NCBI GenBank assembly: GCA_018221285.1
Contig: JAAOYJ010000003.1
Coordinates: forward strand, 14,768-78,767
Direction of reading: 5' to 3'
Length of the DNA stretch: 64,000 nt
Origin: Candidatus Pacearchaeota archaeon
GTDB taxonomy: Archaea > Nanobdellota > Nanobdellia > Pacearchaeales > GW2011-AR1
Part shown: positions 52,736-64,000 of the stretch, piece by piece
How positions within the stretch are numbered: the first letter of the stretch is position 1
Layout of the letters: each line of letters begins with the position of its first letter
The notes under the pieces: model-generated
What the model was told of the DNA's origin: nothing
The model's input: only the letters and a program-made list of their open reading frames with translations
Database searches by the model: none
Translations under genes and position numbers: made by a program

Positions 52736-55213
52736 TTATCTATTATAATAATCTAAAAAAGCATTCCCAGTTATCTCTGCCCCTTCACTTGAACTTGATT
52801 CCGAAGTTTCTGTTGTTGTCTCAACCACATTATCAGAACTCCCTCCATCAGAAGTCCCATCAGTTTCTACAACATTATTTTCTGTTCCTCCAGAATCACC
52901 TTCTGTATTTTCTACAACATTATTATCATAATCTTCCTCATAATGTTCTGGTTCCTTATCTTCATAAAAACATTCACACCTTGTTCCACCATCTACACAA
53001 TCTGTTCTTGAAGCTCCAGGACAATCATCACTACACCCATCTTTACATTCACTCTCATCGTAAAATCCTTTCTCGGGGCCCCCATAATATTGTCCAGGTT
53101 CTCCACACAGACAATCTCCTCCTTCAAAAGTCCAAGGTCTTCCTTGATTCTCACAATTTTGAATACACGCCTTTTCCATCACTCTCCAATCTCCTTCTTG
53201 CTCTCTTCTCATCTCCCCTTCTTCCATCTTCCTCCTCTTCTGCTCAGGCCACTCTTCCCTCATAAAAATTTCACAATCAGGAGGCCAGTGTATTCTATTC
53301 TCCTTACATTGCCATGTTATCTCTCCTTGACCTTCTCCAGGCCCAGGACCATAATGGTCATCAAATTCATTTCCTTTATTATCATAACAATCTAATCTTT
53401 CCATAGAGTCTTCAATACTCATACAATCAGGACCTCTTCCTTGTCCAGAGAGTTCATACTTTCCAGGCCCTCCCCATGCATCAATAATCATTTTTCTACA
53501 TTGTCTTCCATCTAGGCCTTTACATTGTTTAGGTGTTCCTACATTTTCCATTATCCATTCTATGCATTCTTCATTAGAGAATTCAGCCGCATTACATTGG
53601 GAAGGCCTATCTTCTTTTCTTCCACTAGGGCCTCTAAAACTATCCATAAACCTCTTACATTCATCAGGGTCTGTTATTCCTTTTTTAGCGCATTGCGGAG
53701 CATGTTGCTCCATCATTATTTCATCACAAGCTCTTTCAAAAACTCTCTTATCAACCTCTCCTTCTTCTGCAAGTTTTACTAATGTTGCCCTACATTCTAA
53801 AGGAGCATTATTTTTAACCATCACAACCGCGCATTTATTACGTGTTGTAGCTCCTACCTCAACACATTCCCTTGGCATATGCATATCATATTGAGCCCCA
53901 TCCATATCATCTTCTAAATCTTCCCAAATTGGTTGTAGCCAATCAGGCAATTCAGGCATCTTTAAATTTTCTAAATCATCACAAGCTGTTTCATCTCCTT
54001 CAACATCACAAGCAGTAGCTAACGGAGCCGCCTTAGAACAAGCAATTGAAAAATCATAAAAAGGAATCGCTTCACAATTACAATCTTGCCCAGAAGTCTT
54101 AAAACATTTTTTCATAATATTTACAAATTCCCTAGCTGTTTTTTCTTGCCCTGCACTTAAATCCTTATGAAGTTTTTTTTGCCATTGAGGAGCGTCTTCT
54201 CCTGCCCTACACATTTTATCATATTCCATTGGATCTAATTCAGCTAATTGTTCACATAAAGCTTTAATCTTGCTAGAAATTTCAGCAGCAGTAGCAATTG
54301 AATGTTCTTTACTCATAACTTCCCTAACAAATTTTCCTCTTTCTCCTTCAGGAAGTTTATCTCTAATATCTTTCATAGTCGCTCTAATTGCAGCAGCACT
54401 TCTTTTTGCTTCTTCTTTTCTTTCAGGATCTATTTCATGCTCAAGTTCTTCTGCTAATTTCATATAGTCTTCCAAAGCAACTTTAGCACCTTCGATATCT
54501 CCTGCTTCAACCATTGCTTTAATTTCTGCAATTCTCTCTTCCTTAACATCTAATTGATCACCAAATTTATCAAAAAATTTATCTATAAAATAAAAAGTAT
54601 CTCCAGGGGTAGTTCCAGCTTCTTGTTTAAGTTCCTCGCCTTTATATTCTTCAAAAAACTCATCACCTTCATACCTACAACCTTCCCAAAAAACTACTGT
54701 AGGGCAAACCTCTCCACTTGTGCCCCCCAGGGTATCACAATCAGGGCCTCTAAAAATACTTTCGCAAGCATCTATTAATTCACATTGGTCTTGAGCCATA
54801 TCCTCACATCTATAATCTTTATCCTCATCAAAATCATCACTTATGCCCGCAAGAGTATCAAAACCTTTAACAATACATTTGCCATTTTCAACACCACACA
54901 TCGGTTTTCCGTTAGTCGGAGGTTGACACATCATTGCTGCAACTTTCTCTGCAGGAAAACATCCATCCCCACAATCTAAACATTTCAAATCTTCTTTCCT
55001 TTTCTCTTCAAAACCATAAAGTTCTTTACACTCAATAATACAAGGGCTTCTATCCACCTCTTCTGCGATATTCGCCTTACATTTAGTTACGCAATTATCC
55101 AAATCCATTGTCCTCTTACTAATAGTCTCAGCATTTGGAGCAGGAACAAGAGGCATAGATAAAAAACTAATTAAAAATACACAAACTAGTAAAAATTCCC
55201 AACCCCTTTTCAT
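52736..55213 (-). CDS. Secreted Cys-rich protein with a DUF5667-like helical domain
   Basis: Signal peptide, AGTTPGDTFYFID...EERIAE, many Cys-helical repeats, acidic tail ending ITGNAFLDYY. Confidence 0.75.
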   Translation of the reverse strand: MKRGWEFLLVCVFLISFLSMPLVPAPNAETISKRTMDLDNCVTKCKANIAEEVDRSPCIIECKELYGFEEKRKEDLKCLDCGDGCFPAEKVAAMMCQPPTNGKPMCGVENGKCIVKGFDTLAGISDDFDEDKDYRCEDMAQDQCELIDACESIFRGPDCDTLGGTSGEVCPTVVFWEGCRYEGDEFFEEYKGEELKQEAGTTPGDTFYFIDKFFDKFGDQLDVKEERIAEIKAMVEAGDIEGAKVALEDYMKLAEELEHEIDPERKEEAKRSAAAIRATMKDIRDKLPEGERGKFVREVMSKEHSIATAAEISSKIKALCEQLAELDPMEYDKMCRAGEDAPQWQKKLHKDLSAGQEKTAREFVNIMKKCFKTSGQDCNCEAIPFYDFSIACSKAAPLATACDVEGDETACDDLENLKMPELPDWLQPIWEDLEDDMDGAQYDMHMPRECVEVGATTRNKCAVVMVKNNAPLECRATLVKLAEEGEVDKRVFERACDEIMMEQHAPQCAKKGITDPDECKRFMDSFRGPSGRKEDRPSQCNAAEFSNEECIEWIMENVGTPKQCKGLDGRQCRKMIIDAWGGPGKYELSGQGRGPDCMSIEDSMERLDCYDNKGNEFDDHYGPGPGEGQGEITWQCKENRIHWPPDCEIFMREEWPEQKRRKMEEGEMRREQEGDWRVMEKACIQNCENQGRPWTFEGGDCLCGEPGQYYGGPEKGFYDESECKDGCSDDCPGASRTDCVDGGTRCECFYEDKEPEHYEEDYDNNVVENTEGDSGGTENNVVETDGTSDGGSSDNVVETTTETSESSSSEGAEITGNAFLDYYNR

Positions 55214-55292
55214 TACTCAATTAGGATAACTAAGTTTATAAAATTATTTATTAAATGTTTCTCAAATATGATTATTGTTCTCTTTTGTCCAA

Positions 55293-55369
55293 ACAATTTC
55301 GCGAGACTAACTATTGTCTGCGCCGAAGGCGCTGACGGGCGGGAGGGTAAGGGATTCGGGCGAAATTGT
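55293..55369 (+). mobile_element. MITE/REP-like element with perfect 10-bp terminal inverted repeats, intergenic copy (family B)
   Basis: acaatttcgc...gcgaaattgt; internal hairpins agac-N8-gtct and gcgcc-gaa-ggcgc. Confidence 0.8.
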
Positions 55370-55390
55370 AAAAATCCTCCAATTTACTAA

Positions 55391-55442
55391 TACATACATA
55401 GTAAGTAACGTTTATAAGGAGAATTACATAAATAGTAAGTAA
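55391..55442 (+). promoter_or_regulatory. Promoter with two 18-bp palindromic operator-like repeats flanking the TATA box
   Basis: tacatacatagtaagtaa (55391-55408) and tacataaatagtaagtaa (55425-55442), 17/18 identical; tttataag at 55411-55418. Confidence 0.65.
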
Positions 55443-58400
55443 TGGGAAGGACTCGATTAGCCAAAGCTACAGCCGTAGAACTATCAAGGATAATACATGA
55501 AGCAAAACAAAGGAAAGACGTTCTTGTTAGGTATTTGGAGAGATTGAACAAGCATCATTCTGAAGGGAAAATTTCTTATGATAGATATGTTGAGATACTC
55601 CACAAACATACAGATGGCAGAACCATTTCTGAATGGATTGAACACTATGAAGACTACATAAGAGACTTTGAAAAAAAATTAAGAAAAGAAAAGAAAACTA
55701 CCCTCATAAAACAATTAACATTAGGGTTATTTTTTATTTCTTTGATTTTTATTATTCTCAACTTAAACCTAGATATTACCCCTAAATTTGTGGGGTTCAC
55801 AATCCAAGAGCAAGAATTTTCACAAAACTTAGATTTAACCTTTGAAGAATCCGCCGAGTATGAATGGCAATTAGAAAACTTAGGGGAATTAACTTCAGTT
55901 AAATTATCAGGAATTATTGAAGGAGAAGGTAAAGTAAAAATTTACCTCGACGATTTACTAATTATTGATAGTTCAAAAATCAAAAAATCAAAGATAACTG
56001 GCGAAGTAATTAGTGATGATGAATCCAAACCAGTTGAATCATATTCAGAAGAAGTAAACGAGGCTCTTGAAGAAGATTCGAGTCCTTCCCAGGAGCCTCC
56101 ACCTTCTGAAACAAATGAAATTATTGAAGAAGATAGCACAGAAAATATTAATCAAACCGAAGAGGAAGAAGAAATTATTGGAACACCTTCACAAAATGAA
56201 TCATATTCAGAAACAGAAGAGGAGGTCATTGAAGAAGATTCGAGTCCTTCCCCAGATCAAGGTGACATCCTTGATCGCCCAAGCGATGAGCTTGGTGAAG
56301 AGGAGTCTCTACCTTCTGAAACCAAGAAAGAAAAAATAACAACAAGAACATTCAAAGATTCTTGCGAAGAAACTTGTGAATTAAACAACCTGAACAAAAC
56401 TTCATACACTCTAAAAATAGAAATCTCAAATGCAAAATTAAAAATCAGCGATATAAAATATACCATCCTTGGACAAATCCCTGCTGAAACCTCTGAAGAG
56501 AATATAACAGAACCAACCCCTAAAGAAAACGTCACAGAGATTCCTCTTCCTGAAAACGTCACAGAAAGAAACATAACTACCTCTAAAACCAATGTCTCCA
56601 CATTACAATACAAAGCAATAATCAACAAACCTACTAAATGGATTAAAACAATTAAGCGTAAGGAATCAGATCAACCCAACATCTCAATAGAACTTCCAAA
56701 AGAAGCTGAGAACATTTCAGTAAAAACTGGTGACGAAGTTCAACAAGCATTAGACGAACTCGAAGAATTCGATGAAACAATTGAACAAACTGACAGACAA
56801 AATTTTCTTTCAGGATCAATCACTGGAAATGTTGCTCTCGACATTAAACAAGAAAGGAGCATATTAACAAAACTATGGAACTGGCTAAAAAGCTTTACGA
56901 TCACAGGGAATGTTATTGGAGAGCAAGAATTGCAAAACGACATTACAGAAACTATTGACAAAAAAATAATTGATTTGGAAGAAATCATCAACCAAACTCA
57001 AACAACAGAGATCGCAGTCGAGTATTACACAGGGGGCCCAACAGCTATAGAGGAAAACATCAGCAACGGTAAAAGAGTTATTGTTTCAGGAGATGATGAA
57101 TTAAATTACACCGAGGTGCTAGCTTTCACAGAGATAGAAGAAAAATTTGAAGTGGGGCAAGAATCGAAAATTAAGGTTTATTGGAGAGAAGAAAACACAT
57201 ACATAAATTTCACAGCATATGATACCGACGACAACAACAAAATAGATTATGTAGAATGGATTGCTCCACATTTGAGCAACCAAACATTTGATATAATTAT
57301 TGAGATTATTAAAGCCGAGCATTTAGACAAAGACAAAGAATTTATCTCGGACATCTACAACGAAACATACCAATTAGATGATACTTGGAGTGAAGAAATT
57401 TCAAACAAACAGTATGTGAGAATAACTTTTGAGGTTCCACTAGACTCTTCAAGAGATATCACAATCTATCCAAGAATTACTAAAGGAAACCCAACAATAG
57501 AAGTTTATGAGGTTAATGGGACAGAACTAATCGCTGAATTCACAGATATCTTTTCAAATGAATACAATGAAGTTTTATTGACAAATCTAAATGGAACGCA
57601 AGATGTTTTTGATTTGAAAATTGTCGGAGGAAGTGTGGAGTTTGACCATATTGTTGATCCGGATGAATGGTCTGATACAGATTGGCCCTATCGAAAACAA
57701 ATAAATGTTTCAAACACTTATGGAGAAGATCTAATAGAATATCAAATAGAATTAATAATTGATACGGCAGCCCTTATTACTGCAGGAAAGCTGAATTCTA
57801 ATTGTAGTGATTTGAGATTCACTAATGCATCTGGAGGATTAATTTCCCATTATGTGGATGAAAATACTCGTATAGATTGTAATGAGAACGATACTCTAAT
57901 TTGGATACAAACAGACGTCTTAGTAAATAATGCCAACACGTCTTTTTACATGTATTACGGAAACTCTGGAGCGAGTTCGACTAGTAATGAGTTGGATGTT
58001 TTCAATTATACTACACCTACTCCTGTAATGGTGCCTGTAGGTACAAATAATGATGATGCAATAGAAGTAGTGAGTTATGCAGATGGAAACACAATTGAAA
58101 TGGGGGGATATTCTAATACACTTAGTGAAGGGGAAGTTGATACCGGTGTAGGTAGTCACTCTCAAAATACCTTATTAAATGTAACCCAACCCGTTGCAGC
58201 AATTTCTGATAGTACAGGAGATGCATTAGTGCCATTAAGCTTTGCTGGAACATTATTCTTACAGTATGGTGACAGAGCAGCAGGCACTACCACTTATGCC
58301 GCATATTCATTTGAAGATAATAACAAGGTTGCCGTACATACTGGGGGGTGGACTGAAGCAAGTAGTGTAATTGTGAACAAAGGTTCTGTTGGAACATTAA

Positions 58401-61400
58401 CAACTACTACTAGTGATGCCTTTATGATTAATTCAACTTATCCTGTAGTGATATTTAGACAAGAAGGAGGAAATGATAATATGGTATTTTATCCTGCTCA
58501 AACAGAATATTATGGCTGGGGAGGTAGGCGTATATATATGACAGCCTTAGAAGCTGATACTGGCATTACTTGTTATGACAGTCAAAACACCATGCCAGTA
58601 AGTATAAATATTGGTGCTGGTGGTCAGGGATCCTACACTAGTTGGGGTAGGGATAGTGCTGGAGAAGCGGCCTTCTGTAATAGTACTAAGATCTTTGGTG
58701 TTAACCAAGAAGCAGATGCAGATGGTAATGAGCAGACAGAATTCATAAATGAAAAAGAACTTGATAGAATCCACTTTTTACCTCAAGCTACAGGGACTAG
58801 TACAGATTTTTATGTATCTGTTATAGCTCCCACCCCAAGTACTAATTGTACTGTGACTCGTTCTGGAGCATTTGTTACAGATGCTGTTAGTGCAGCTTAT
58901 ACTTTTCCAAACCCTAACTTAATCTCGTTTACTTCTGGTTTGCAGGCAGGAGATAAAATAGATTGTAGTGCACCGGTTACAATAGCTTATGATGATGTTG
59001 ATGATGCTGGTGACGAGCATAATCTTTTCGGAATGAAAGCAAATAGGCGGTTTGTTTACCCAACACCGACTTACACAATTGCAGCAGAAGAAGAACCTCC
59101 AGCAGAAGACACAACCTACCCTCAATTCTCAAATTACTGGGACAACAACGCAACACTAGAAGAAAGTGGAACTGGTTTATTCAATGTAACAGTACTGAAT
59201 ACTAACGGAACTGTCTTGTTAGAAATTAACGGAACAAACATCACAGCAACAAATTATGCGGGAGACAATTATAATGCAAGCCATGCTTTTACAACTAACG
59301 ACACTTATCCTTACAAATGGCATTCATGGGGAAACGGTACAGATGAAAACTATAATATTTCTGTGACCAGAAGCTATACTGTTAATGGGACTGTCCCTGA
59401 CACAACTTATCCTTCAGTTACAATAATCTCTCCAACCGCTCAGAATTATGCGACAATATCAATAATATTCAATATAACAGCAACAGACGAAACTGGAATG
59501 GATACTTGTCTTTACTCCTTAGATGCAGGGGCAACCAATACAACAATGGGCAATTCATCAGCGACGTCATTCAATGCAACAAACTCCTCAATGGCTCAAG
59601 GCCTACATACAGTTAATTTCTATTGTAATGATACTTCAAATAATATAAACGACACAGAAAATGTGACTTTCCTTATTGATTCAATTTATCCATCATGGGA
59701 GAACAACAAAACAAATCTAACAACAACTACTACTCAAGGATCTTCAATTTATTTTAATATGACCTTAAACGAAACCAATCCAGCGAACTATACATTCAGC
59801 TGGTACAATGGAACAGCATGGGAGAACACAACAGGAAGCTACACTGATGGGGAGGAAGTTGAAGTGATTAAAACAATTAATATCAATGGGGGGCAGATTA
59901 ATTGGACTTGGTATTTCAATGATACTTCTGGAAATTCAAATCAAACAGATGTGTGGAGTATGACATTAGTGACTGTAGACACAACACCTCCTCAAATTCA
60001 ATTCGAAGATCCAACAAGAGCAGACGGAAACACAACAGCAGACACTTCAATTGAAATCAATGTCTCAATTACAGAATCTAATCTCGGCGAAGTAGTCTAC
60101 AATTGGAACGGAACAAACTTCACATTAATGAATAATAACTTAGTTCTCTTCATGAACTTTGATAATGTATCTGCTCTTGGAGAAAATGATACCTTAGTTG
60201 TTGATGCAAGCGCTTATGAAAACAATGGAATAGTAAACGGTGCTGTTGTAAACACAACTGGCAAATATAATGGCTGTTATTCTTTTAACGAAAACGATGC
60301 AATCAACGTAGGAAGTGATTCAAGTCTAGACATCACAAACGAAATCACAATTAGTGTCTGGATTAACTCTTTATCTCAAAATCAAGTAGCTGGAAATGTC
60401 AAAAGCTATGCAAAAATAGACAGCACTGACCTAGCCGGAGAGTTGGAGGCTTCAGATCATCTTGGTGTTGGTGTAGCAAATATTGGTGATTTGGATGATG
60501 ATGGAATAGTGGATATTGTTATTACAGCTAATCTAGATGATGATGGGGGCGACAAAAATGGGGCAGCATATATTGTATTTATGAATATAGATGGAACTGT
60601 AAAGGATTATCAAAAAATAAGTGAGACCTACGGAGGATTTACAGGAGATCTAGCAGGAGGTCGGGCTGGTTATGGTGTTGCAGGTATTGGAGATTTAGAC
60701 GAGGATGGTGTAGAAGATATTGCAGTTGGAGCTTTTGCAGATACTTCTCTTACAGGAGCTGTTTGGGTGCTATTTCTAAATACAAATGGAACGGTGAAAT
60801 CTTATAATAAAATTGATGATGCAAGTGTAGGTGGAGAGTTGGACGTAGGAGATATATTTGGTGGAGGTGTCATATATCTTGGAGATTTGGATGGGGATGG
60901 TGTGGGAGATATTGCTGTTGGAACTTTAAAAGATCATGATGGAGGCTCTGATAGAGGGGCTGTTTATATACTTTTCATGGATACGGATGGAACTGTAAAA
61001 GATTATCAAAAAATAAGTGATACCCGAGGAAATTTTACAGGAGGCTTAACTGACTTAGATGAGTTTGGTAGTGGGGGAAATAGTATTGGAGACTTGAATA
61101 ATGATGGTGTAGAAGATATCGCAATCGGGGCTAGGAAAGCTGACGATGGAGGAGCTAGTGCAGGAGAGGTTTGGGTACTATTTATGGATACAGACGGAAC
61201 TGTCAAGTCTGAAGCTAAAATTAATGATACAAGTGTGGGAGGGGGGTTGGACGCAGGTGATCAATTTGGTAATAGAGTAGGAGGTATTGGAGATTTGGAT
61301 GGGGATGGTATAGAAGATATTATTGTTGGGGCTAGTTTCGGTGATGATGTGAAAGATGATGCTGGAGAGATTTGGGTATTATTTCTGGATACAGACGGAA

Positions 61401-63682
61401 GTGTGAAATCATTTTCTAAGATAAATGATACTAGTATGGGGGGAGGACTAGATACAGGGGGTTTGTTTGGAACATCAGTCGCAAATATAGGAGATTTAGA
61501 TGGGGATGGGGTAACAGATTTTATTGCTGGAGCCATGAAAGATGATACAGGATTCACTCAAGCGGGAGCCGCTTGGATAGTTTTTTTGGAGGATGGTTTC
61601 GCATCCATCCTAAATAAACAAAATGCGTATGAAATTCGAGCAAACGAAACTGCTGTAAAAGGAATGACTAATGGAAGTTCTATAATCGCCCAAATTAATG
61701 CAGGGTGGAACCACGTTGTGCTCACGTCCAATAGTACAAACAAATCACTCTATGTTAACGGGGTTTTATCTTCTACAGGACCAAGTGGTGCAATCGCTTC
61801 AAACACATACGACCTTCTTATCGGAAATGACTACAACGGAAGCATAGATGAATTAATGATTTACAACACTTCGCTAAACTCCGCCGAAGCCTATCAATTA
61901 TATATTTCCAATCTAAAAAAATACGACACTGACAAATGGACTTTATATGTTAACCAATCTAAGAACGCGACAACTGGTTTAGAAAATGGGAAATATACTT
62001 ATCAGACATTTGTAGCAGATACTTCAAGTAATTGGAATCAAACAGAAGAGAGGACAGTTACAATAGGTGATGGAGCAGCAGGAGACACAGCCCCACAAAT
62101 AACTTCTGTATTCAACGACTCAATGACTGATGTATCAAGCGGACCAAATGAAGGACCTTCTCCAACTTATGTAATTATTAATTTCACGGCTTATGATGCA
62201 AACGGAGCCTCAGACTTAAATGACAGCACAGCGAGAATAAACTTTACAAGAACAGGGGAAACAACAAGAGAAAACTTAAGTTGTTCGAGATACGCAACAG
62301 GAGGAAATTATGCAAACTATACTTGTAATGTAACAATGTGGTGGTTCGACGGTGCAGGGATTTGGAACATCACAGCCCACATTAAAGACAACCAAAGCAA
62401 CTCAGCCACAAATGCGTCCCAAACTTTCTCTGTTGGTTCAAGGACAGCATTTGTCATGGGCCCGTCTTCCTTAACTTGGGCTGGACTAAGCCCTGGAGCA
62501 ACAAACCAAACTTCAAACAATGATCCTCTTACTCTAAACAATACAGGAAATGATATTATCACTGCTTCCAATATAGAAATTAATGCTACAAATCTCCTCG
62601 GTGAAGAAAACAGCAGTTATGGTTTATGGGCTGGGAATTTTTCAGTTAGTTATACAGACGCTGGCGCTTGTGCAGGAACCGCCATGAGCTCTTCAGAATA
62701 CACAAACATAACTGCTGCAAATCTAACAATAGGAAACTACACAGTCGGGGACGGAACAGCACAGGAAGAATTATATTTTTGTATAAAGGTTATCGGAAGC
62801 GAACTTACAGACCAAGCTTACTCAACATCTGGACAAGGAGCATGGACAATAAGAATCTTACTCGTTGCTTTAACCACAAGAAGAAGAAAGAAAACTAAAC
62901 ACAAAAACCAAACAGAGCTTTTCATCCCTTCAACAATCTTCACAAAAGAACTTGGAGCCTTGGAAGCAATCAGCAAATATATGAAAGAAAATTTGGAAAT
63001 GAGTTATCATGAAATTGGTGAATTGTTGGAAAGGGATGAAAGAACTATCTGGACATCATATAACAAAGCTGTTGAGAAACAAAAAGCAAAATTAAAGGTA
63101 AAGGATACAGAGTTCTTCCTACCAATCTCAATCTTTAGTGATAAACTAACAATCCTCGAGGCTGTTATTGTTTATCTAAAACAAAAAGGTTTAAGGTATG
63201 CTGAGATTGCCGAACTAGTTGATAGAGACCAAAGAAATGTTTGGGCAACTTATTCTAAGGCAAAGACAAAACTAGAAGAAAAAGAGATTACAAAAGTAGT
63301 TGAAATAAAATTAGAGATAAAGATTCCTCAAACAATCTTCTCCAAACAACTTGGAGCATTGGAAGCGATTAGTAAATATATGAAGGAAAACTTGGAAATG
63401 AGTTATCATGAAATTGGTGAATTACTAAAAAGAGATGAAAGAACAATCTGGACTTCATATAACAAAGCTATTGAAAAACAAAAAGCAAAGATAAAAATTA
63501 AGGATGTTGAGGTTTTCCTTCCAATCTCAATCTTCAACAAAGAGCTAACAGTTCTAGAAGCAGTTGTGGTTTATCTAAAACAAGCAGGATTGAAATACAG
63601 TAAAATAGCTGAGCTAGTTGATAGAGATCAGAGAAATGTTTGGGCAACTTATTCAAAAGCTAAAGAAAAGGCAATTACATAA
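55442..63682 (+). CDS. Giant surface protein (2746 aa): N-terminal TM, DUF2341, Ig-like domains, LamG split by FG-GAP repeats, C-terminal tandem HTH domains
   Basis: W.YRK.I...DLRFT...YMYYGN (DUF2341), GDLDGDG..D..VGA (FG-GAP), GSIDELMIYNTSL (LamG), four LEA...Y.K....Y.EI.EL..RD.R..W..Y.KA units. Confidence 0.88.
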   Translation: MGRTRLAKATAVELSRIIHEAKQRKDVLVRYLERLNKHHSEGKISYDRYVEILHKHTDGRTISEWIEHYEDYIRDFEKKLRKEKKTTLIKQLTLGLFFISLIFIILNLNLDITPKFVGFTIQEQEFSQNLDLTFEESAEYEWQLENLGELTSVKLSGIIEGEGKVKIYLDDLLIIDSSKIKKSKITGEVISDDESKPVESYSEEVNEALEEDSSPSQEPPPSETNEIIEEDSTENINQTEEEEEIIGTPSQNESYSETEEEVIEEDSSPSPDQGDILDRPSDELGEEESLPSETKKEKITTRTFKDSCEETCELNNLNKTSYTLKIEISNAKLKISDIKYTILGQIPAETSEENITEPTPKENVTEIPLPENVTERNITTSKTNVSTLQYKAIINKPTKWIKTIKRKESDQPNISIELPKEAENISVKTGDEVQQALDELEEFDETIEQTDRQNFLSGSITGNVALDIKQERSILTKLWNWLKSFTITGNVIGEQELQNDITETIDKKIIDLEEIINQTQTTEIAVEYYTGGPTAIEENISNGKRVIVSGDDELNYTEVLAFTEIEEKFEVGQESKIKVYWREENTYINFTAYDTDDNNKIDYVEWIAPHLSNQTFDIIIEIIKAEHLDKDKEFISDIYNETYQLDDTWSEEISNKQYVRITFEVPLDSSRDITIYPRITKGNPTIEVYEVNGTELIAEFTDIFSNEYNEVLLTNLNGTQDVFDLKIVGGSVEFDHIVDPDEWSDTDWPYRKQINVSNTYGEDLIEYQIELIIDTAALITAGKLNSNCSDLRFTNASGGLISHYVDENTRIDCNENDTLIWIQTDVLVNNANTSFYMYYGNSGASSTSNELDVFNYTTPTPVMVPVGTNNDDAIEVVSYADGNTIEMGGYSNTLSEGEVDTGVGSHSQNTLLNVTQPVAAISDSTGDALVPLSFAGTLFLQYGDRAAGTTTYAAYSFEDNNKVAVHTGGWTEASSVIVNKGSVGTLTTTTSDAFMINSTYPVVIFRQEGGNDNMVFYPAQTEYYGWGGRRIYMTALEADTGITCYDSQNTMPVSINIGAGGQGSYTSWGRDSAGEAAFCNSTKIFGVNQEADADGNEQTEFINEKELDRIHFLPQATGTSTDFYVSVIAPTPSTNCTVTRSGAFVTDAVSAAYTFPNPNLISFTSGLQAGDKIDCSAPVTIAYDDVDDAGDEHNLFGMKANRRFVYPTPTYTIAAEEEPPAEDTTYPQFSNYWDNNATLEESGTGLFNVTVLNTNGTVLLEINGTNITATNYAGDNYNASHAFTTNDTYPYKWHSWGNGTDENYNISVTRSYTVNGTVPDTTYPSVTIISPTAQNYATISIIFNITATDETGMDTCLYSLDAGATNTTMGNSSATSFNATNSSMAQGLHTVNFYCNDTSNNINDTENVTFLIDSIYPSWENNKTNLTTTTTQGSSIYFNMTLNETNPANYTFSWYNGTAWENTTGSYTDGEEVEVIKTININGGQINWTWYFNDTSGNSNQTDVWSMTLVTVDTTPPQIQFEDPTRADGNTTADTSIEINVSITESNLGEVVYNWNGTNFTLMNNNLVLFMNFDNVSALGENDTLVVDASAYENNGIVNGAVVNTTGKYNGCYSFNENDAINVGSDSSLDITNEITISVWINSLSQNQVAGNVKSYAKIDSTDLAGELEASDHLGVGVANIGDLDDDGIVDIVITANLDDDGGDKNGAAYIVFMNIDGTVKDYQKISETYGGFTGDLAGGRAGYGVAGIGDLDEDGVEDIAVGAFADTSLTGAVWVLFLNTNGTVKSYNKIDDASVGGELDVGDIFGGGVIYLGDLDGDGVGDIAVGTLKDHDGGSDRGAVYILFMDTDGTVKDYQKISDTRGNFTGGLTDLDEFGSGGNSIGDLNNDGVEDIAIGARKADDGGASAGEVWVLFMDTDGTVKSEAKINDTSVGGGLDAGDQFGNRVGGIGDLDGDGIEDIIVGASFGDDVKDDAGEIWVLFLDTDGSVKSFSKINDTSMGGGLDTGGLFGTSVANIGDLDGDGVTDFIAGAMKDDTGFTQAGAAWIVFLEDGFASILNKQNAYEIRANETAVKGMTNGSSIIAQINAGWNHVVLTSNSTNKSLYVNGVLSSTGPSGAIASNTYDLLIGNDYNGSIDELMIYNTSLNSAEAYQLYISNLKKYDTDKWTLYVNQSKNATTGLENGKYTYQTFVADTSSNWNQTEERTVTIGDGAAGDTAPQITSVFNDSMTDVSSGPNEGPSPTYVIINFTAYDANGASDLNDSTARINFTRTGETTRENLSCSRYATGGNYANYTCNVTMWWFDGAGIWNITAHIKDNQSNSATNASQTFSVGSRTAFVMGPSSLTWAGLSPGATNQTSNNDPLTLNNTGNDIITASNIEINATNLLGEENSSYGLWAGNFSVSYTDAGACAGTAMSSSEYTNITAANLTIGNYTVGDGTAQEELYFCIKVIGSELTDQAYSTSGQGAWTIRILLVALTTRRRKKTKHKNQTELFIPSTIFTKELGALEAISKYMKENLEMSYHEIGELLERDERTIWTSYNKAVEKQKAKLKVKDTEFFLPISIFSDKLTILEAVIVYLKQKGLRYAEIAELVDRDQRNVWATYSKAKTKLEEKEITKVVEIKLEIKIPQTIFSKQLGALEAISKYMKENLEMSYHEIGELLKRDERTIWTSYNKAIEKQKAKIKIKDVEVFLPISIFNKELTVLEAVVVYLKQAGLKYSKIAELVDRDQRNVWATYSKAKEKAIT
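62096..62194 (+). repeat. Domain-encoding segment duplicated in the downstream gene (63892-63990)
   Basis: 86/99 nt identical (manual count); second copy is cut by the window end. Confidence 0.85.
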
Positions 63683-63720
63683 AAATTTATATATCACAAT
63701 CTATTATTTACACTATTAAA

Positions 63721-64000
63721 ATGAGAGAAGATATTAATAAAAAAAGGCGAATGATCTTGATCCTATTCATTTCAATATTTCTTTTATTATCTATTTCTAC
63801 TATTTCCGCAGGATGGTTAAAAGACATTAAAAATAAAATAACTGGTGAGGCAACTCAAACAGTGGGGATAAACATTACAGTAGGGGGTCCTCAAATAACT
63901 GCAGTATTCAACGACTCAATCACAGATGTATCAAGCGGACCAAACGAAGCTCCTTCCCAAACTGATGTAATTATAAATTTCACAGCTTACACTGCTGCAG
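63721..64000 (+). CDS. Secreted protein sharing a domain with the giant protein, 3'-truncated by the window edge
   Basis: MREDINKKRRMILILFISIFLLLSISTISAGWLKDIKNKITGEATQTVGINITVGGPQITAVFNDSITDVSSGPNE... Confidence 0.8.
   Translation, partial: MREDINKKRRMILILFISIFLLLSISTISAGWLKDIKNKITGEATQTVGINITVGGPQITAVFNDSITDVSSGPNEAPSQTDVIINFTAYTAA

Follow-up and report, generated by a model that had tools for sequence, protein, structure and literature searches.

The DNA analysed here (the window) is a stretch of 64,000 nucleotides (nt) of Candidatus Pacearchaeota archaeon, contig JAAOYJ010000003.1, from an assembly of 863 kb that is 81.8% complete, and the gene under study codes for a giant surface protein whose chain ends in four helix-turn-helix (HTH) units. 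As the initial annotation had recognized, the gene is a single uninterrupted open reading frame (ORF) of 2746 amino acids (aa) on the plus strand. Its promoter elements and the segments of its product, including a first transmembrane (TM) helix, an ectodomain rich in N-x-S/T sequons, and a basic C-terminal tail, are as follows (isoelectric points are abbreviated as pI):

55391..55407, + strand: candidate operator copy 1, TACATACATAGTAAGTA, just 5' of the TATA-like box; perfect match to the 17-nt motif
55411..55418, + strand: TATA-like box TTTATAAG, ~24-31 nt before the ATG
55425..55441, + strand: candidate operator copy 2, TACATAAATAGTAAGTA, abutting the start codon; perfect match to the motif
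55442..63682, + strand: giant surface-protein gene, a single ORF of 2746 aa without an internal stop
55442..55702, + strand: N-terminal basic helical domain, aa 1-87, pI 9.7, sequon-free, conserved in the family and probably cytoplasmic
55703..55771, + strand: TM helix 1 or signal anchor, aa 88-110, by hydrophobicity
55772..62842, + strand: ectodomain, aa 111-2467, pI 4.1, 94 sequons
57800..58006, + strand: DUF2341, aa 787-855 (Pfam, 42.6 versus a gathering score of 23.4 bits)
60884..61381, + strand: FG-GAP repeats, ~aa 1815-1980 (Pfam, 72.1 versus 22.1 bits)
61589..61888, + strand: Laminin_G_3 (LamG), aa 2050-2149 (Pfam, 43.5 versus 27.6 bits)
62114..62857, + strand: two Ig-like domains forming a conserved membrane-proximal stalk, with the final strand W-T-I-R-I
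62843..62893, + strand: short hydrophobic stretch WTIRILLVALTT plus RRRKK, candidate stop-transfer anchor
62915..63316, + strand: HTH pair 1 (units A1 and B1), aa 2492-2625
63317..63679, + strand: HTH pair 2 (units A2 and B2), aa 2626-2746, a duplicate of pair 1

The most hydrophobic window of the giant lies at aa 88-106 (Kyte-Doolittle 2.34), and the three adhesin-type modules that had been read from the letters alone, namely DUF2341, LamG, and FG-GAP, all exceed their Pfam gathering scores and lie C-terminal to this N-terminal TM helix, marking the product as a surface protein. The sequon-rich, extracellular-type region named alongside them is likewise borne out, with the 95 sequons of the whole giant all falling within aa 237-2489. 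The Ig-like modules find no match in Pfam, but the last stalk domain is all-beta in its AlphaFold2 model; the stalk unit also recurs at the C-terminal end of the split-form giants described below and makes up the bulk of a paralog encoded downstream. The best Foldseek matches of this last stalk domain (62432-62857; model residues 1-142) are the chaperone-usher pilins Caf1, CsuA/B, CfaB, and PapE and the TasA fibre (probability up to 0.98, E ~0.01, TM-scores 0.4-0.5), a weak hint that the stalk might polymerize by strand exchange.

The four HTH-like units begin at aa 2492, 2557, 2626, and 2690, and their arrangement as two pairs corresponds to the 399-nt tandem duplication noticed at the outset (62924-63223 versus 63323-63622, 80% identical, spacing 399), which is seen only by a separate direct-repeat search, Tandem Repeats Finder reporting no array on 55000-64000. 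The Pfam family Sigma70_r4_2 (PF08281) is matched at aa 2568-2611, the whole protein scoring 45.5 against a cut-off of 25.7 bits; taken singly, unit B1 passes (26.6), and units A1 (16.4), A2 (14.4), and B2 (19.3) stay below. An AlphaFold2 model of the junction plus tail (aa 2331-2746; 50-row alignment) has a mean predicted local distance difference test score (pLDDT) of 88.8 and folds each of the four units as a short strand followed by three helices with pLDDT >90, so that the HTH nature of the tail, as first called, is supported by both profile and model. One HTH pair modelled alone forms a single compact body (pLDDT 95.3, predicted template-modelling score 0.86). Single units superpose on region 4 of SigR (0.8 Å, 45 columns), the DNA-binding domain of EsrB (1.6 Å, 55 columns), region 4 of sigma-28 (Z 5.7, root-mean-square deviation 0.9 Å over 50 residues), and the archaeal transcription factor 8hno (Z 5.5, 0.7 Å over 48 residues), values of Z <8 being modest for small helical domains, and sequence profiles match the same solved proteins weakly (E 0.03). 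Foldseek returned no match at E<=1e-3 for the 416-aa junction-plus-tail model and none at that threshold for the whole pair, the pair model matching by single units only. The best reading of the tail is as double-HTH modules of the sigma-region-4/LuxR type, which are putative DNA binders. Identity with a bacterial extracytoplasmic function (ECF) sigma factor was considered and ruled out: in Pfam searches Sigma70_r2 (sigma region 2) is missing from the giant, the tail units, and six stand-alone homologs, and the NCBIfam sigma models match the tail at their region-4 end only and far under their cut-offs. Without a region 2 the tail is not a sigma factor, and the 'sigma-24 family' annotation of these giants is thus wrong.

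The fusion of tail and surface protein is a trait of a large family. A search with aa 2468-2746 against 1.84 billion representative proteins clustered at 50% identity recovered 2026 clusters at E<=1e-3, of which 1544 reach E<=1e-10. Of the 150 top matches, 55 are at least 1000 aa long (the longest 5919 aa) with the tail match at the extreme C-terminus, and several carry four units as in the window protein (e.g., P0003, P0005). A length-restricted search (1510-4806 aa) gave 83 fused proteins including the query, on contigs up to 933 kb. Those of them that have a name are annotated as hypothetical, LamG, DUF2341, or, wrongly, 'sigma24 family' proteins, and come from metagenome-assembled genomes of Pacearchaeota and Nanoarchaeota, in agreement with the DPANN setting that had been assumed. 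The junction, for which W-x-I-x-I, a short run of hydrophobic residues, and a cluster of basic ones were required within the final 450 aa, was scored positive in 108 of the 112 homologs of at least 1000 aa (one of the 108 being a false detection), with a median distance from the W to the basic cluster of 11 residues (range 5-29). Among 40 related genomes the tail is present in nine, mostly ending open frames of 950-4533 aa, with the junction sequence conserved, and the N-terminal 115 aa in seven, where in one genome (G020) they belong to exactly the three tail-bearing giant ORFs. The recognition helices are nearly invariant among paralogs with very different ectodomains. The fusion that had been noticed in a single frame is hence real, the search for it in relatives having returned hundreds of fused homologs with a common junction, and the ORF belongs to a very large family of N-terminally anchored giant surface glycoproteins in Nanoarchaeota/Pacearchaeota.

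The lengths of the fused tails (107-386 aa overall) cluster at ~135-145 aa (one pair), 180-198 aa (a ~55-aa helical insert plus a pair), and 250-285 aa (two pairs). The insert lies between the basic patch and the HTH pair in most fused tails (~180-198 aa; e.g., P0057, P0087, P0108, P0075, P0094, P0131). It is similar to the N-terminal region of the free HTH proteins, and the motif L-x-x-E-L-K-K-K-Y-x-L recurs in it. The window protein has no such insert, with just seven residues from the basic patch to unit A1. Three other explanations for the C-terminal region were rejected. For a separate tail protein made from an internal start, the segment joining the basic patch to unit A1 offers no plausible start codon; the lysine codons AAGAAGAAGAAAGAAAAC, considered as a site of ribosome sliding, are not a homopolymeric A run; and a C-terminal sorting signal (PGF-CTERM/archaeosortase or LPXTG type) is at odds with the 262 residues that follow the basic patch and with the lack of an NCBIfam sorting-signal match.

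The same components also occur as two genes. In an even sample of 201 genomes across the phylum, the HTH pair was found at E<=1e-5 in 104, mostly in open frames of 160-200 aa, and this split form is commoner than the fused one. The stand-alone proteins (~180 aa) comprise a helical N-terminal region of ~50-70 aa followed by an A+B pair, and have neither a TM segment nor a signal peptide. We inspected 30 stand-alone loci, taken non-randomly from the top of a score-ranked list: in 21 of them the HTH gene overlaps, or lies at most 13 nt from, a downstream same-strand ORF with an N-terminal TM segment (counting ORFs that reach 500 aa or are truncated at a contig end). Local blastp aligned 17 of these 21 ORFs, at E<=1e-3, with aa 1-760 of the window protein. 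Three ORFs that are complete contain the stalk, which ends 2-4 residues short of their stop codon, and the tail is matched by none; the split-form giant thus stops exactly where the anchor and HTH units of the window protein begin. That components fused in some genomes are encoded by an overlapping gene pair in others argues, by Rosetta-stone logic, for a functional partnership, and since the free HTH partner is cytoplasmic, the fused tail is expected to act in the same compartment. A two-gene state had been entertained as the alternative that would undo the fusion; it does exist, and is the commoner state in the phylum, but it strengthens the functional link instead of weakening the fusion. 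At one locus (L038:7425-7772) the HTH-pair gene is followed by a 116-aa protein consisting of the giants' N-terminal cytoplasmic domain and TM helix only, which looks like a minimal version of the giant partner.

As to topology, the ectodomains pooled over 108 homologs contain 9851 sequons versus 4450 expected from composition (2.2-fold), and the pooled tails 122 versus 138.5 expected; in the window protein the pI is 4.1 for the ectodomain, 9.4 for the tail, and 9.7 for the N-terminal domain. The contrasts in sequons and pI, together with the cytoplasmic free homologs, favour a chain with its N-terminus inside, ectodomain outside, and tail inside. The second crossing would have to be made by WTIRILLVALTT (aa 2468-2479; 62843-62878), followed by RRRKK from aa 2480 (62879). 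The reservation expressed earlier that this stretch is short for a membrane helix holds good, with a value <1.05 on a 19-residue Kyte-Doolittle window, no place among the ranked hydrophobic windows of the giant, and no helix in the model. In the family, such a marginally hydrophobic segment, with five to nine K/R residues after it, is in our view a putative stop-transfer signal. Given so short an anchor, the cytoplasmic location of the tail is tentative.

Within the 130 nt 5' of its start codon, the giant gene has a 17-nt motif, TACATAMATAGTAAGTA, in two copies flanking the TATA box. The distance of ~24-31 nt between the TATA-like box and the ATG suggests an mRNA with little or no leader. We read the motif as an inverted repeat with imperfect arms, TACATAC-ATA-GTAAGTA, a form that would suit a pseudo-dimeric A+B module. 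With up to 3 mismatches allowed, the window contains no match beyond the two promoter copies, and the 863-kb assembly holds one extra match at up to 2 mismatches (itself with 2) versus 2 for a reversed control pattern. The arrangement of motif and TATA box is repeated in relatives, where a copy abuts or overlaps the ATG. A degenerate form, TACAYAHATARTAAGTA, searched at up to 1 mismatch in 41 genomes, gave 23 matches (8 for the reversed control), of which 18 lie in sets of two to four copies directly upstream of giant genes that had been located independently of the motif (G000, G001, G006, G013, two genes of G020, G022, and G040), the remaining five being single and each with 1 mismatch. Two to four related copies also surround the TATA box of fused giants (G038, G033) that belong to a different taxonomic family, and split-form loci have related repeats, e.g., TACTTACA...ACGTAA, at the same position upstream of the HTH gene. 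Within the same loci, a 16-mer repeated at an identity of at least 14/16 was found in 14 of 28 target promoters versus 3 of 71 control upstream regions. The spacing between copies varies among loci from 21 to 84 nt, and the giant gene of one relative (G006) is preceded by four copies instead of two (C25:4244-4458).

The analysis shows the architecture and its conservation, the split counterpart, the fold of the HTH units, and a motif that is both specific and conserved; from these we infer DNA binding by the tail, the sign of the regulation, and the cytoplasmic position of the tail, and consider it fairly probable that the giant is a membrane-tethered transcription factor that regulates its own adhesin gene, with the tail binding the two operators of its own promoter. 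In such a mechanism, the N-terminal 87-aa basic domain would be cytoplasmic, TM helix 1 would cross the membrane, and the acidic, glycosylated ectodomain of ~2350 aa would lie outside, with the short hydrophobic stretch and the polybasic stop-transfer patch bringing the chain back to the cytoplasm. There the two compact double-HTH modules would each sit on one 17-bp operator, the two copies flanking the gene's own TATA box and one covering the likely transcription start, so that the amount or state of the finished, membrane-inserted giant would set the transcription of its own costly 8.2-kb gene. The overlap of one operator with the probable start makes negative feedback the most likely sign. 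The organism's own genome (in an 81.8%-complete assembly) shows neither another HTH pair nor another operator locus, which fits a closed one-gene loop.

Several observations weigh against this self-regulating loop. The stretch that would have to cross the membrane has just ~10-12 residues and includes conserved R/K, AlphaFold2 places TIRI in the last stalk strand and gives the hydrophobic stretch no helix, and the linker at aa 2476-2489 has pLDDT <50. The HTH pair and the motif are linked only by co-occurrence, and the motif could have a different binder; the incomplete assembly could also lack further operators or HTH genes. The giant gene of one genome (G012) and the third one of another (G020) are without the motif at up to 1 mismatch. 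Related genomes are non-independent observations, and the 30 split loci are the top of a score-ranked list, not a random draw. Nine of those 30 stand-alone HTH genes do not adjoin a giant gene: three are followed by a secreted protein of ~240-265 aa and one by the 116-aa protein mentioned above, one has a giant ORF 442 nt off, and four have nothing comparable. The ~240-265-aa secreted proteins (L042:6566-7351, L062:1853-2569, L067:1894-2688) share the motif RWKAY-x-GNV-(S/T)-G and may represent a second kind of client gene.

The same architecture would equally serve a contact-sensing one-component receptor, in which binding to a host leads to cleavage near the polybasic linker and the freed tail regulates genes elsewhere. 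The linker (aa 2476-2489) is predicted to be disordered by its low pLDDT and would thus be protease-accessible, and proteolytic release of membrane-tethered factors is familiar from bacteria and eukaryotes. However, no regulon was found and no further close copy of the motif in the 863-kb assembly, the motif occurs in relatives only at giant-gene promoters apart from single 1-mismatch matches, and the near-invariance of the recognition helices across divergent ectodomains speaks against signal-specific outputs, which together make such a receptor unlikely. From the one-component receptor put forward in the initial annotation, the membrane-tethered DNA-binding role survives as the best reading, given the conserved fusion and the HTH module; the sole candidate target found, though, is its own promoter, so that the system looks like a self-regulating loop and not like a receptor in control of other genes.

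Alternatively, the double HTH could be a cytoplasmic docking or sorting module that contacts a partner protein or the giant's own N-terminal domain, with some other factor reading the motif. The occurrence of one cassette behind very different ectodomains is what sorting and anchoring modules would show, sigma region 4 makes protein contacts too, and the N-terminal cytoplasmic domain always accompanies the system. That domain (aa 1-103) matches Pfam and NCBIfam at chance level only (E 0.014 or worse) and no anti-sigma family among them; for aa 1-87 (10-row alignment) modelled in complex with HTH pair 1, the scores were 0.05 and 0.02 versus a mark of 0.32, values that we weigh neither way as regards binding. 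Unlike sorting signals, a free soluble form of the module is encoded upstream of giant genes, and a conserved, promoter-specific motif needs a dedicated binder, for which the HTH pair is the sole DNA-binding domain consistently found at these loci; we accordingly hold a docking role to be quite unlikely.

A more speculative variant, which we rate as distinctly improbable, makes the short anchor a force sensor, such that a pull on an adhesin gripping the host strips the HTH pairs off the DNA and derepresses the gene without proteolysis. Insertion of the giant during its synthesis would keep its own gene at the membrane, and the anchor of 10-12 residues with its polybasic linker would be pulled into the membrane or right across it; in the split form, the N-terminal cytoplasmic domain would play the corresponding part, in the manner of an anti-sigma factor. 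If this were true, a cell with a sub-megabase genome would make more adhesin only where and when contact occurs.

That the tail is extracellular, or is an effector delivered into the host cell to bind host DNA, is very improbable. The hydrophobic stretch falls short of a canonical TM helix, so that the chain might not re-cross the membrane, and DPANN archaea need host contact; the tails, however, show no sequon enrichment next to the 2.2-fold enrichment of the ectodomains, they are basic and the ectodomain acidic, the soluble homologs have no signal peptide, and the matching motif lies in the organism's own promoter. The host-delivered effector that had been offered as a second possibility finds no support, and the soluble module is co-transcribed with giant genes. 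Finally, the system does have two-gene forms, but an artificial joining of two genes, by misassembly or by a stop codon lost in this strain, is excluded by the conservation of the family: the common junction recurs in hundreds of independent fused homologs, contrary to the earlier proviso that homologs might always be two genes, the HTH gene of the split form sits upstream of the giant gene, so that loss of a stop cannot yield the fused order, and four contigs of the one public run listed with this sequence (no RNA run is listed), which may be the source sample, match 62512-62895 and 62995-63423 without difference (identical at 62741-62895 and 63189-63423 around the junction and tail), none of them spanning the whole.

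Among known systems, ToxR, CadC, and TcpP are bacterial membrane-bound one-component regulators that are able to act on promoters while membrane-bound, and they share with the giant a DNA-binding domain tethered to the membrane in one polypeptide with an extracytoplasmic domain. In them an OmpR-type winged HTH at the N-terminus goes together with one canonical TM helix and a periplasmic sensor of small size, whereas the archaeal giant would have two membrane passes (the second very short), a C-terminal tandem HTH of the sigma-region-4/LuxR type in place of the N-terminal winged one, an adhesin-like ectodomain of 2350 aa, and its own gene as sole candidate target. A placement of the two parts on opposite sides of the membrane, as in ToxR, would fit the contrasts in composition and sequons, and the joining segment has ~10-12 hydrophobic residues and no helix in the model. 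The split form resembles the operons of ECF sigma and anti-sigma factors (sigmaE-RseA, sigmaI-RsgI): a small gene for a region-4-like HTH protein overlaps a downstream gene whose product has, as in the anti-sigma layout, an N-terminal cytoplasmic domain of ~85-100 aa, one TM segment, and a large outside domain, the promoter looks autoregulated, and single units can be superposed on sigma region 4 (Z 5.2-5.7). The giant system differs in its archaeal setting, where sigma factors are not used, in having no sigma region 2 and no known anti-sigma family, and in a merely putative contact between the partners; moreover, the downstream, overlapping order is found in the split form only (21 of 30 loci), the fusion in the window having the opposite order.

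The Tfx-like/LuxR regulators of archaea (8hno; NCBIfam tfx) belong to the same HTH class, with an 8hno profile match at E 0.029 and a weak tfx match at E 0.005, both far under family thresholds; those proteins are soluble, have a single HTH, and are not attached to a surface protein, in contrast to the tail's fused A+B pair with its preceding IP-x-S-I-F strand. Notch, SREBP, and ATF6 are eukaryotic membrane-tethered factors released by regulated proteolysis, which likewise combine a large extracellular or lumenal part and a cytoplasmic transcription-factor part in one chain, but there cleavage is defining and the folds are different. Other giant DPANN surface proteins (LamG, beta-helix, Ig) come from the same organisms and share the ectodomain repertoire and the heavy use of sequons. 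In the full-text literature within reach (subscription journals and supplements lying outside it), we found no paper that connects these giants with an HTH tail, an HTH gene upstream, or a motif in the promoter.

What makes the system unusual is its fusion to a giant adhesin-like protein, its aim at its own promoter, its wide distribution in one archaeal phylum, and its short anchor. DPANN archaea live attached to other cells, and giant surface proteins are prime candidates for that attachment; to our knowledge, almost nothing is known of how these proteins are controlled. The 2026 clusters (50% identity) point to a very large family in which a giant and a dedicated double-HTH factor occur as one chain or as an overlapping gene pair. 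For uncultivated organisms this offers a circuit that is testable at the bench with one protein fragment and one 17-bp DNA site, and, if the loop is true, the same accessible literature yielded no earlier archaeal membrane-tethered transcription factor coupled to an adhesin. How an anchor of ~11 residues and a polybasic patch would hold a 270-aa domain on the cytoplasmic side is a puzzle of membrane biology in its own right.

The remaining feature of the immediate neighbourhood lies 3' of the giant gene:

63721..64000, + strand: downstream gene for a 322-aa protein, running past the window end (L027:489-1457), 38 nt after the giant gene

Its product is a paralog of the giant's two stalk domains, with a hydrophobic N-terminal leader judged by eye to be a signal peptide, and ends at a W-x-W-I-I strand without an anchor or HTH units. 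The gap of 38 nt makes co-transcription with the giant gene probable, and the paralog may co-assemble with the giant's stalk. A stalk-paralog gene stands 3' of the giant gene in nine of the nine loci compared (an alignment with 17 invariant columns). On the other side, the A+T-rich intergenic region is shared with a divergent neighbour (52736-55213, - strand) coding for an 825-aa protein with a DUF5667 domain (31.7 bits). A search of 55100-55500 against Rfam gave a chance-level RAGATH-18 match only (18.7 versus 44.9 bits). Upstream of the operators, this region contains a G+C-rich island at 55320-55365 with a short hairpin, gcgccgaaggcgc... gggcgggagggtaaggg.

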